Part shown: piece by piece, positions 39,288 through 39,826 of the stretch
How the letters are laid out: each line of letters starts with the position of its first letter
How positions within the stretch are numbered: the stretch's first letter is position 1
Translations under genes and position numbers: made by a program
NCBI GenBank assembly: GCA_964640535.1
Contig: CAZXFS010000003.1
Location: 3,173 to 67,172 of the forward strand
Direction of reading: 5' to 3'
From: an uncultured Prevotellamassilia sp.
GTDB taxonomy: Bacteria > Bacteroidota > Bacteroidia > Bacteroidales > Bacteroidaceae
Length of the DNA: 64,000 bases
The notes under the pieces: generated by a model
Seen by the model: only the letters and a program-made list of their open reading frames with translations
What the model was told of the DNA's origin: nothing
The model's database searches: none

Positions 39288-39826
39288 CTTATCGTGAAGC
39301 GAGAGGGGGTGAAAAAGTGTGCGTGAAGGCCGCGAGAATGCGTTTTTTCCACCGTCGCCGTCCCCATGTCCGAGCATCGCCGCCACGGTGCCCTTCGGAC
39401 TGTTAAAAAAGTTCCGTTTTTGACATATACTGTCAAAAACGCAAAAAAGCGGGGACCGCCGCGCGGCGAAACAAGTCCGGGAGAAATTCCAACAAGTCCC
39501 GGACTTGTTCCAACAGTTCCGGGACTTGTTTCGCCGAAACCCGCCCCCGGCGAAACGGGGCCTCTTCCTTCATTTTTTTAACTTTTGAGGGATGCTCCCG
39601 GGCGAAGCGGAGTCTCATTTTTCTGTACTTTCCTTGCAAAGAAAAGTAAAACCTGAGCGACCTTTTCTTAACTTATTTAAATTTTGCGTGAAATAATGTA
39701 TCTTTCCGTCACTTTCTGCATAAAAATCGTCAGCAAGAGAGGCCAAAGTCGCCGTTTTTGCGTCCTTTCCCGTGTCAAGTTTTTTCCACAAAATGGGTGA
39801 TTACAAAAAACTTTTTTCAAAAAAAA
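39288..39826 (+). repeat. copy B2 of the ~0.55-kb interspersed non-coding element
   Basis: Same block order as B1 and B3. Perfect 27-bp palindrome at 39415-39441, three 21-bp units at 39470-39532, an AT-rich TTATTTAAATTTTGCG module near 39670-39690, and GTGTCAAGTTTTTTCCACAAAA at 39771-39793. Confidence 0.85.

Follow-up and report, generated by a model that had tools for sequence, protein, structure and literature searches.

The array of 21-bp units described here is the centre of a longer repeat, which we call B, and no free-standing regulatory site. We are confident in describing B as a species-restricted, non-coding interspersed repeat of ~560 bp with the 63-bp array as its central module, dispersed among many intergenic sites in the core chromosome of an Alloprevotella-like, uncultured member of the Bacteroidales; B is no gene, nor is it the leader of any one gene. 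Judging from the sequences of its copies, we tentatively favor a reading of B as a BrickBuilt/BOX-like element and of its array as a putative, helically phased platform for the binding of several protein dimers.

B is dispersed through intergenic regions

The 64,000-nt stretch of DNA analyzed (the window) carries three full copies of B, all on the plus strand and delimited by nhmmer and alignments. B1 (23539–24097) lies between an M12-type peptidase gene (20878–23274, minus strand) and guaA (ATG at 24199, plus strand). B2 (39288–39827), defined by a full-length nhmmer match and by its ends, runs from CTTATCGTGAAGCG to TTTTTTCAAAAAAAA and separates a divergent glycogen-debranching gene (36807–38765, minus strand) from the 3′ end of purC (39911–40978, minus strand), both assigned by Pfam. 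B3 (51424–51982) sits between lpxD (50084–51157, minus strand) and the 3′ end of a SusD-like gene (52305–54575, minus strand). A short-read contig (L006) stops just ahead of B3.

Another copy was found just beyond the window in a 98%-identical strain and six further ones were obtained by fishing with a translated frame of B, bringing the copies recovered as DNA to ten; about ten more are represented as spurious open reading frame (ORF) calls only. All are intergenic, and the resulting count of at least 10–20 (about 20) copies on the chromosome is a lower bound. Their length is constant (523–565 bp), with a leader of ~185 bp, three to four units of 21 bp and a tail of ~300 bp. In B2, the leader holds blocks 1 and 2 (CGCTTATCGTGAAGCGAG, then GTGCGTGAAGGCCGCGAGAAT, a homopolymer run and CCACCG; 39286–39358, plus strand) and block 4 (TTAAAAAAGTTCCGTTTTTGACATATACTGTCAAAAA; 39403–39439, plus strand), whose distance to the dyad centre downstream is a constant 63 bp (three registers) in three-unit copies and whose GTTAAAAAA is an inverted repeat of TTTTTTTAAC at 39573–39582. 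The conserved tail blocks of B2 comprise CCGTGTCAAGTTTTTTCC.CAAAA and a terminal T/A run (39770–39827, plus strand).

The neighbors of B, as classified by Pfam, are unrelated housekeeping genes found in every orientation relative to the repeat. No rep, transposase, integrase, recombinase or regulator gene adjoins B at any copy checked, the 64-kb window holds no IS, and no RAYT or HUH gene occurs in the sequence examined. Searches of plasmids and phages with B2 (blastn) and a scan of viral sequences with block 4 returned no match. At the guaA loci of relatives (GuaA 91–93% identical), no B is present upstream of guaA, where the gene order also differs. Like MITEs, B is short, non-coding, devoid of a transposase gene and dispersed at unrelated loci, but its ends (CTTATCGTGAAGCG ... 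TTTTTCAAAAAAAA) bear no terminal inverted repeats; the sole inverted repeat besides the array is internal and 5–9 bp long (GTTAAAA/TTTTAAC). Inverted repeats of 19–43 nt are present in two related elements (L002 and L003). Neither flanking target-site direct repeats nor an empty site was found among the loci compared, and we infer the dispersal of B solely from the distribution of its copies.

The array is built of dyads in strict 21-bp register

The array of B2 (39470–39532) consists of AACAAGTCCGGGAGAAATTCC, AACAAGTCCCGGACTTGTTCC and AACAGTTCCGGGACTTGTTTC. Unit 1 (39470–39490) combines a left arm with GGAGAAATT, unit 2 (39491–39511) is a full 19-bp dyad (AACAAGTCC-C-GGACTTGTT), and unit 3 (39512–39532) pairs a degenerate left arm with a right arm; their TCC-N-GGA cores are centred on 39479, 39500 and 39521. 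The first-pass annotation had reported exactly these sequences as AACAAGTCC/GGACTTGTT half-sites arranged > > < <, an arrangement that is far above chance and true of all three copies in the window. The equivalent segments that it had placed at 23720–23782 and 51607–51669 were likewise confirmed. Its count of three units per copy holds for B1 (array 23720–23782, third core TCA-G-GGA) and for B2, but not for B3, whose array (51607–51690) extends into a fourth, degenerate in-phase unit (GTAGTTGTT; GAATCCCGTAGTTGTTCC at about 51670–51690) that is a 21-bp duplication. Tandem Repeats Finder (TRF) reported arrays of 21-bp period at 23718–23782 (3.1 copies), 39470–39530 and 51607–51688 (3.9 copies). 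The window contains 13 matches to the 12-mer ACAAGTCCNGGA (up to one mismatch), the expectation being 1.0; 0 of 100 shuffles reached 13, and 12 of the 13 matches fall in the three arrays.

Across the ten copies, the TCC-N-GGA core keeps an exact 21-bp register in 33 of 33 units, with a freely variable central base (G, C or A) and a 13-nt motif that is invariant in sequence. Each array is made of one or two left-arm units, one full 19-bp dyad and up to two right-arm units; left-arm units always face the leader and right-arm units the tail. Gains of units amount to exactly 21 bp (B3, B7, and B10), and left and right half-sites are unequal in number in four copies (B3, B7, B8, and B10). Confinement of the motif to these repeats, which the first-pass annotation had named as the first half of an outcome that would speak against it, is what we found in this species: ~190 kb contain 41 occurrences inside B and a single, weak one outside.

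The array can be written as a degenerate phased pattern, e.g., TCCNGGACTTGTT-N8-TCCNGGACTTGTT and AACAAGTCCNGGA-N8-AACAAGTCCNGGA. A metagenome scan with the exact 19-mer gave three matches, all in coding sequence without extra half-sites and taken as chance; viral sequences contained no 19-mer and one isolated, chance-level match to a 17-mer. A literature search by sequence retrieved only primers and p53 sites.

Constraint acts on nucleotides rather than on a protein

Mean pairwise identity over the ten copies is 0.89 for block 1, 0.83 for block 2, and 0.83 for the array. The array had been put forward as the most conserved part of the element; it does rank among the most conserved parts, but blocks 1 and 2 equal or exceed it. 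Since the blocks and the array are 0.78–0.89 identical vs. 0.40–0.60 in the spacers, and variability is flat across codon positions, constraint operates at the nucleotide level. Whole copies are 0.54–0.79 identical to each other and stable between strains. When strains were compared via spurious ORF translations (P0125 vs. P0126; B3 vs. P0121), at most about three of 17 amino-acid differences fell in or at the edges of conserved blocks—a weak hint that the constraint may be ongoing. In one strain, the B3 orthologue has an altered core right arm (SPGLV to SPGLI), so that constraint on the array is not absolute.

These data bear on the possibility, unlikely in our estimate, that B is a relic without present function, its blocks having been needed only for past mobilization of master copies, its array being, like that of the BrickBuilt MITE, a short minisatellite with a palindromic repeat unit, and its copies decaying neutrally. 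The age of the copies suggested by their divergence, their stability between strains, the restriction of the motif to B and the mutated core arm of the sister strain would fit such a relic, as would a unit number that varies as slippage would have it. The conservation of the blocks and array amid spacers near saturation argues against it, as do strain-level differences that avoid the blocks and the sharing of the dyad with other species in different elements.

Gene callers read B as a small protein gene encoding TSPGEIx/TSPGLVx heptad repeats, and both the JGI and NCBI pipelines place hypothetical proteins of 84–145 aa on it; indeed, nine of ten copies have one plus-strand frame without stop codons between block 2 and the TAA of TTTTAAC. 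We nevertheless consider this reading extremely improbable. Variation is not in excess at third positions (0.36/0.32/0.35 for the three codon positions upstream of the array and 0.22/0.14/0.20 within it), within the conserved blocks all three codon positions are identical, whereas differences in the variable parts alter the amino acids, and frames are shifted relative to block 2 in B1, B2, and B6. Moreover, the opposite strand is open too, and the product has no Pfam domain.

The array has hairpin potential but no support as an attenuator

As RNA, the units had been proposed to form two mutually exclusive helices of an attenuator, and their complementarity is largely as claimed: unit 1 pairs with the second half of unit 2 over 13 nt, perfectly in all three window copies, and the first half of unit 2 (2a) generally pairs with unit 3, with one mismatch in B1, where unit 3 is TCAGGGACTTGT. 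The attenuator or riboswitch-like switch itself (12–13-bp helices 1:2b vs. 2a:3) has not withstood the comparison of copies; we regard it as largely refuted already and very improbable. The central bases G, C, and G allow both helices in six of ten copies, and B9 carries a swapped C,G pair, but the bases at these positions disrupt one helix or both in B4, B7, B9, and B10. Downstream genes are found in no fixed orientation to B (the right-hand neighbor is convergent at five of ten copies), the unit composition of B varies, with unbalanced half-sites in four of ten copies, and the minimum free energy structure is usually a single long hairpin. Nor is there a conserved promoter, a terminator U-tract, an Rfam match or covariation. 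Rfam 15 gave zero matches at gathering score, the best permissive ones reaching 21–24 bits against thresholds of 40–52; covariation terms in RNAalifold were positive, i.e., unsupportive, for three copies (both strands) and for ten; and an all-against-all column scan for covarying stems yielded only purine/T-run artefacts. Except in the array, folding z-scores throughout B are about −0.2 to −0.9. A TAnnTTTG box is absent from any fixed position in B on either strand, and the leftward genes carry their own TAnnTTTG boxes outside B. A potential CCTCG/CGAGG stem can be drawn in spacer 1, but its register differs from copy to copy.

More plausible, albeit still rather unlikely, is a hairpin or cruciform module: a strand folded back on itself, be it single-stranded DNA or read-through RNA, in the manner of REPIN/REP, BOX, and Correia elements. 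This intra-strand hairpin would be recognized by an enzyme specific for both structure and sequence, such as an HUH/RAYT-type transposase or RNase III, or would act as a transcript stabilizer or insulator. Every copy folds over 85–111 nt, at −27 to −67 kcal/mol as RNA (z −2.8 to −11). In B2, an extended imperfect palindrome (39464–39536) has 36-nt arms that are 81% complementary and folds as a single strand at −27.9 kcal/mol (DNA parameters, z = −5.6). The palindrome reaches 5–6 nt beyond the motif in B2 (CGGCGA/TCGCCG) and B3 (CGTCGG/CCGACG), not in B1; complementary flanks of this kind, each copy with a sequence of its own, occur in B2, B3, and B7, and nearly complementary ones in B4, B6, and B10. 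In B7, B8, and B10 the symmetry continues for ~12 nt into GCCGCGCG / CGCGGCGC, and the inner ~220 bp of B are bounded by GTTAAAAAA / TTTTTTTAAC. As in REP/REPIN sequences, the array consists of inverted palindromic units that form a hairpin; REP/REPIN units are short (20–100 nt), stand alone in hundreds of copies and have a cognate RAYT gene, while in this species the units are tied to the 560-bp element, bar the one weak match mentioned above.

Several features speak against folding as the selected property. The unbalanced half-sites of B3, B7, B8, and B10 leave one unit in the loop, and eight conserved nucleotides of the left units (GAGAAATT) find nothing to pair with in the right units. Neither strand is favored by the flank mismatches, which are G·U-compatible on the plus strand in B7 and on the minus strand in B6 and B10. 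There is no termination U-tract, and the sequence examined offers no gene for the transposases in question. Above all, the half-sites never covary in sequence across ten copies and four species, which argues for recognition of sequence rather than structure.

A putative docking platform for protein dimers

The first-pass annotation had also offered a DNA reading, with dyad-related half-sites at two-helical-turn spacing serving a multimeric protein; in this general form it finds support as the best fit to the invariant 13-nt motif, the free central base, the strict 21-bp register of 33 units and the 21/22/42-bp phasing found in other species. In the mechanism that we propose, the array would work as double-stranded DNA. 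Each 21-bp unit would present a small dyad core, TCC-N-GGA, together with AACAAG on its left, CTTGTT on its right, or both, and a dimeric protein that binds DNA sequence-specifically would nucleate with high affinity on the full 19-bp dyad. The spacing of the one-armed units, exactly two helical turns, puts them on a single face of the helix, so that further dimers could add cooperatively, and a polar nucleoprotein complex would result in the middle of the repeat. One candidate binder is a protein that mobilized the repeat in the past, or one that maintains it (a transposase or recombinase accessory protein); another is a host regulator of the winged helix-turn-helix (wHTH) type. Likely consequences would be propagation or maintenance of the element and local effects on neighboring promoters.

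Some observations sit uneasily with this docking model. Gains of exactly 21 bp can come from replication slippage with no need for selection on phasing, and both strands of the array can fold into a strong hairpin (mean z about −6). Complementarity of the 5–12 nt flanking the array in five to six of ten copies, with sequences differing by copy, is not predicted by a pure double-stranded DNA site, and the conservation of GGAGAA(A/G)TT in left-arm units is left unexplained by the dyad.

Other uses of a DNA-binding array fit less well. Tyrosine-recombinase cores such as lambda att, FRT, and dif are compatible with a 6+7+6 geometry, and the full dyad could be such a core, with arms AACAAG/CTTGTT, a 7-bp overlap TCCNGGA and one-armed units as accessory sites, as in FRT or the Tn4430 IRS. 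This site-specific recombination reading, which we deem improbable, draws on that geometry, on the association of a core dyad with accessory repeats of the same motif, and on dyads near tRNA genes in L001 and L005 and near a VapE/DUF3874 gene in L001. However, the supposed overlap is the best-conserved part of every unit, even of those missing one arm—the opposite of what is expected of accessory sites—and the tRNA genes of L001 and L005 have the dyads on their 5′ side instead of at the 3′ end. A recombinase gene is missing from the vicinity, and the three window copies, all in the same orientation, display no sign of rearrangement between them.

Iteron origins with a Rep operator combine direct repeats beside an inverted repeat with A/T-rich tracts, and the 21-bp spacing, the one or two direct repeats beside an inverted repeat and the A/T-rich tail tracts of B are reminiscent of them. 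The iteron reading raised by the first-pass annotation, if taken to mean a replication origin or plasmid remnant, is for practical purposes refuted: at least 10–20 copies reside in the core chromosome among housekeeping genes, where one origin per replicon would be expected, with no adjoining rep, transposase or integrase gene and no plasmid or phage similarity. Where iterons comprise three or more direct repeats of 17–22 bp at ~22-bp spacing, B has a 21-bp register but only one or two direct units, the rest being inverted. More broadly, theta-plasmid iteron arrays and FRT or the Tn4430 IRS share repeats spaced by ~21–22 bp with direct and inverted copies of one motif, and B differs from all of them in its many chromosomal copies lacking an adjoining rep or recombinase gene.

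Relation to known repeats and to dyads in other species

Pneumococcal BOX, enterobacterial REP/BIME and REPINs, and Neisseria Correia elements are modular extragenic interspersed repeats with variable internal subunit number and strong hairpin potential, mostly 35–300 bp long and conserved largely in structure or in their terminal inverted repeats only. B resembles them in being interspersed, extragenic, modular, variable in unit number and hairpin-prone, and differs in its size of about 560 bp and in being palindromic only in its central 85–110 bp. In architecture, B is also akin to the BrickBuilt MITE of Porphyromonas gingivalis, which numbers about 19 copies, all of them intergenic and restricted to that species, and comprises a leader of up to 285 nt, 1–23 head-to-tail internal tandem repeats of 23 nt (about two helical turns), a tail of up to 318 nt and IS5-type 12-nt terminal inverted repeats, GAGACCTTTGCA (Klein et al. 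2015, PMC4596501). Both belong to the order Bacteroidales, are intergenic and species-restricted, follow a leader/two-turn repeats/tail plan and attract spurious hypothetical genes. The likeness is one of architecture, the sequence comparison having covered the terminal inverted repeats only; unlike BrickBuilt, B lacks terminal inverted repeats and target duplications and has just three to four units, built from dyads, with left arms on one side and right arms on the other.

Tandem 21-bp semipalindromes are also found in operators of NrtR/AraR-family wHTH regulators, where they are separated by 3 nt or 42 nt and a dimer occupies some 25 bp (Chang et al. 2015, PMC4666351). The array shares this geometry, and in L005 two dyads with centres 42 bp apart lie ~150 bp upstream of a gene encoding NUDIX and NrtR_WHD/AraR_C domains, an adjacency seen only there. 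The B dyad and the BtAraR site (AAAGTGTTACTTTTACACCCAT) are, however, unrelated in sequence, the promoter in L005 is preceded, not overlapped, by the dyads, and the species of the window carries the motif in B only, instead of at the promoters of a regulon. We take the resemblance as a possible lead only.

The same dyad recurs in other repeat contexts in three related MAGs, at spacings of 21 bp (L002), 22 and 42 bp (L004), and 21, 21, and 22 bp (L005), and heptad-repeat ORF calls point to further in-phase arrays of three to five units. A broader proposal, to which we assign a low probability, is that Alloprevotella-like Bacteroidales have a DNA-binding protein particular to their clade (e.g., an NrtR-like wHTH, structuring or partition-type protein) that docks on the chromosome at phased TCC-N-GGA arrays. 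The repeat bearing the site would then have reached tens or hundreds of intergenic regions, where selection keeps it. If so, the repeats would constitute a global regulatory or nucleoid-organizing network rather than junk DNA.

The docking reading, if correct, would make B a second, differently built Bacteroidales interspersed repeat, after BrickBuilt, with an internal two-helical-turn array; as it answers no long-standing open question, its value would be incremental. The clear dyad logic of the array and the cross-species motif should render the binding protein experimentally findable. In practical terms, B repeats break short-read assemblies and produce spurious "hypothetical protein" families in public databases. 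Finally, promoters of core genes, among them lpxD, guaA, htpG, and an RND efflux operon, have a copy of B within 150–650 bp that could affect them.

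An intergenic repeat carries the 21-bp array

The array segments of the three window copies are identical to those quoted in the first-pass annotation, and TRF places 21-bp period arrays at 23718-23782, 39470-39530, and 51607-51688. Matches to the 12-mer ACAAGTCCNGGA (≤1 mismatch) number 13 in the window (1.0 expected), a count reached in 0 of 100 shuffles, and 12 of them fall within the three arrays. Of the two proposed pairings, that between unit 1 and the second half of unit 2 (13 nt) is 100% complementary in all three copies; that between the first half of unit 2 and unit 3 holds except for one mismatch in B1, where unit 3 reads TCAGGGA. 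B3 has an additional, degenerate fourth unit exactly 21 bp beyond the third. The array is real and non-random, yet it is one component of an interspersed repeat family.

This larger repeat, B, has the array at its centre, preceded by a leader (blocks 1, 2, and 4) and followed by a tail. Its window copies—B1 (23539-24097), B2 (39288-39827), and B3 (51424-51982)—can be aligned over ~560 bp, the conserved blocks keeping a fixed order and the spacers being diverged in sequence and conserved in length. All three are intergenic in a core-chromosome region (ileS, recQ, clpXP, tig, guaA, cmk, glycogen genes, purC, a PBP1 gene, miaA, lpxACD, SusCD). Judged by the one GuaA match with an organism name (P0012, 91% identical, labelled Alloprevotella sp.) and by the presence of SusC/D genes, the organism is an Alloprevotella-like Bacteroidales bacterium. 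The annotation had called the array iteron-like; an iteron origin is hardly conceivable in this setting. The 64-kb window contains no transposase or integrase genes, and its regulators amount to one MarR; that the array is a tyrosine-recombinase core with a 7-bp overlap appears quite unlikely.

In a 98%-identical strain, the sequence past the window's left end contains a fourth, more diverged copy (B4). Using the translation of B's open reading frame as a probe, we found nine spurious "hypothetical proteins" located on B copies, whose contigs yielded six further DNA copies (B5-B10). A probe translated from the opposite strand uncovered about ten additional copies, and its weaker matches, in other metagenome organisms, contain 3-5 tandem TSPGLxx heptads, implying further in-phase 21-nt arrays. 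Copies B1-B10 measure 523-565 bp and share a pairwise identity of 0.54-0.79 (mean 0.61), which by region amounts to 0.89 in block 1, 0.83 in block 2, 0.78 in block 4, 0.83 in the array, and 0.40-0.60 in the spacers. The array is consequently not the single most conserved part, as had been claimed, since leader blocks 1 and 2 equal or surpass it. Of the 12-mer matches in ~190 kb of the window species, 41 lie inside B and one, a weak match, lies elsewhere.

The genes flanking B are unrelated and take every orientation relative to it: an M12 peptidase gene and guaA, a GDE gene and purC, lpxD and a SusD-like gene, dnaK and an RND operon, a GH2 gene and recJ, DHDPS and FKBP genes, rpsP and a GFO/IDH gene, htpG, and others. 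B is absent upstream of guaA in relatives with 91-93% identical GuaA, in which the upstream gene order also differs. The left boundary of B is fuzzy and subfamily-dependent. A Logan short-read contig with lpxD (L006, equal to window 49217-51311) stops 113 bp before B3, indicating that the repeat breaks assemblies. Abutting the right end of B2, a G+C-rich hairpin with T-runs on both sides (39831-39877; GCGCCCCCTCC...GGAGGGGGCG) resembles an intrinsic terminator, acting in both directions, for purC.

Block 2 exists in two forms. After GAGAAT, B1 and B2 read GCGTTTTTT(T) (23591-23600 and 39341-39349, respectively), and the remaining eight have CGCAAAAAA(A) followed by one additional base (51477-51485 in B3; likewise B4-B10). 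The variants are base-for-base complements, not reversed, a change that no ordinary mutation explains; a pairing partner was sought and none was found.

The nearest published analogue is the BrickBuilt MITE of P. gingivalis, which consists of a leader of ≤285 nt, n copies of a 23-nt repeat, and a tail of ≤318 nt, and whose 19 copies are all intergenic, species-restricted, and have drawn spurious gene calls (PMC4596501). Unlike BrickBuilt, B has only 3-4 units, set in a polar dyad arrangement rather than head-to-tail, and shows neither terminal inverted repeats nor target duplications at the ends of its copies. Because terminal inverted repeats, a defining MITE feature, were looked for and not found, we did not file B as a MITE; in its workings and looks it would seem to be like a modular interspersed repeat of the BrickBuilt/BOX type.

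Strict register and free central bases within the array

The units are best viewed as small dyad cores, TCC-N-GGA (in B2, with centres at 39479, 39500, and 39521), each with AACAAG on its left, CTTGTT on its right, or both. Every copy has one to two leader-side units (AACAAGTCC-N-GGAGAA(A/G)TTTC), one central full dyad (AACAAGTCC-N-GGACTTGTT), and zero to two tail-side units ((variable 6 nt)TCC-N-GGACTTGTT). Across the ten copies, all 33 units keep the exact 21-bp register and retain the core at 5-6 of its 6 positions. At the central N, G, C, and A all occur, by no rule valid for every copy: G,C,G in six of ten, G,C,C in B4, G,A,C,C in B7, C,G,G in B9, and C,C,G,G in B10. The numbers of left and right arms do not balance in B3, B7, B8, and B10. 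Left units additionally conserve 8 nt, GAGAA(A/G)TT, the mirror position of right units being variable, and in 3-unit copies block 4 always lies 63 bp (three registers) upstream of the dyad.

B is neither a coding gene nor a structured RNA gene

A TSPGEIx/TSPGLVx frame is open in nine of ten copies. Variability by codon position is nevertheless flat (0.36/0.32/0.35 upstream of the array, 0.22/0.14/0.20 inside it), the conserved blocks are identical at first, second, and third positions alike, B1 and B2 carry block 2 out of frame, B6 is frameshifted, and the opposite strand is likewise open. We thus reject a coding gene, a reading we hold to be extremely unlikely, and regard the database ORFs on B as artefacts. 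On either strand of B copies, JGI and NCBI gene callers place 'hypothetical proteins' of 63-176 aa (P0121-P0139; e.g., L015:15567-15722 and L019:10001-10255 on two contigs), reading the units as TSPGEIS/TSPGLVx heptads and creating spurious protein clusters in public databases.

Rfam gave no match for B. RNAalifold returned positive covariation terms, that is, no support, for three copies (both strands) and for ten, and a scan of all column pairs in the B alignment found purine/T-run artefacts only. Against dinucleotide shuffles, fold z-scores of leader, middle, and tail average -0.2 to -0.9 on both strands; the array ±12 nt is the only structured part of B (mean z ~-6 on either strand; -27.9 kcal/mol, z = -5.6, for B2 with DNA parameters). 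The Bacteroidetes -7 box (TAnnTTTG) occurs at no fixed alignment position on either strand, and the leftward neighbour genes are served by boxes of their own, located outside B. Nothing points to a dedicated B transcript and, given these results, B is not a structured RNA gene. The annotation had also offered mutually exclusive RNA hairpins in an attenuator-like geometry; its complementary units notwithstanding, an attenuator is very unlikely, failing on neighbour-gene orientation, on a missing U-tract, on arms that do not balance, and on the central bases, which mismatch in four of ten copies. B is a dispersed, non-coding, block-conserved repeat whose sole palindromic module is the array.

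The array may act as double-stranded DNA

The reading we find most likely, and hold tentatively, is that the array works as double-stranded DNA: the full dyad would form a nucleation site for a putative sequence-specific protein that binds as a dimer, and the one-armed units, two turns of the helix away on the same face, would recruit further dimers. This is suggested by the invariance of sequence, not structure, over 33 units and four species, by a free central base combined with strict register, by phasing kept across species though unit composition differs, and by the fixed polarity of the array within B. Counted against it, slippage alone accounts for 21-bp gains. A relic without present function is possible, if rather unlikely; in two B copies compared between strains via the spurious ORF translations, at most ~3 of 17 amino-acid differences lie in or at the edges of conserved blocks, a weak sign of ongoing constraint.

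The strong hairpin also fits a REPIN/BOX-like single-strand role, as do partly covarying flanks: the 5-12 nt bordering the array are complementary in B2, B3, and B7, with sequences differing by copy, nearly so in B4, B6, and B10, and non-complementary in B1, B5, B8, and B9. Such copy-specific complementarity favours intra-strand pairing, and the mismatches favour neither strand; overall, we deem this role somewhat unlikely. Under the double-stranded DNA reading, an NrtR/AraR-type regulator is a candidate lead for the binder, such regulators binding tandem 21-bp semipalindromes 3 or 42 nt apart (PMC4666351). That B copies might together form a network of docking sites for a putative clade-specific DNA-binding protein is unlikely.

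The dyad recurs in other Bacteroidales

The exact 19-mer dyad is rare in public collections, with five loci (L001-L005) in three Bacteroidales MAGs; JGI metagenomes gave nothing beyond chance matches, and viral contigs gave none. L002 and L003, from the same Alloprevotella MAG (DAIRWG01), hold it in the middle of 250-320-bp segments of one family (L002:4702-4954, L003:2687-3010) bounded by 19-43-nt inverted repeats (ACGCGCGCGCGT.TTACA...); in L002, a half-site precedes the dyad by 21 bp, and L003 has five extra 22-bp tandem repeats (ACACTACCGCGGTACCCTCACG). These segments resemble true MITEs and seem related to the core of B. The L002 segment lies between two AAA-ATPase_like+PDDEXK_9 genes. 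In L004, three dyad-like sites are spaced by 22 and 42 bp, and a further palindrome occupies the 21-bp position in between. L005 has four units in phase (spacing 21, 21, and 22 bp), lying ~150 bp upstream of the gene for a NUDIX+NrtR_WHD/AraR_C regulator, and L001 has a single dyad between tRNA-Thr and a VapE/DUF3874 gene. Judged from these contexts and spacings, the motif and its ~21-bp phasing are older and more widespread than B, carried in different repeat contexts.

Other iterated motifs stand beside the dyads of two uncultured MAGs (L004:6697-7014, L001:1000-1140): GTGTGAAGG/TTCACAC-type repeats, ATAG(C/T)GCGCGTGAAGCAT present twice at a distance of 21 bp, with CGTGAAGC common to B block 1, and 29-nt inverted repeats with TATATATACGT.

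Further features of the window

A tandem repeat with 2.3 perfect copies of a 21-bp unit (19447-19494; GAACGAGGGGAAGACAAGATA), located ~400 bp beyond the trigger-factor gene (17669-19048, minus strand) on its 5′ side, has the period of the B units and an unrelated sequence. A C/T-rich 64-bp tandem repeat (42946-43098; 2.4 copies, 96% identical) separates the convergent DUF5715 (42030-42911) and PBP1 (43201-45714) genes. The left end of the window (1263-2999; also L015:10001-12650) encodes a GGGtGRT-domain protein, identical on 22 contigs from many samples, beside DUF4417 and small hypothetical genes; this region may be a mobile or defence islet within otherwise core DNA.
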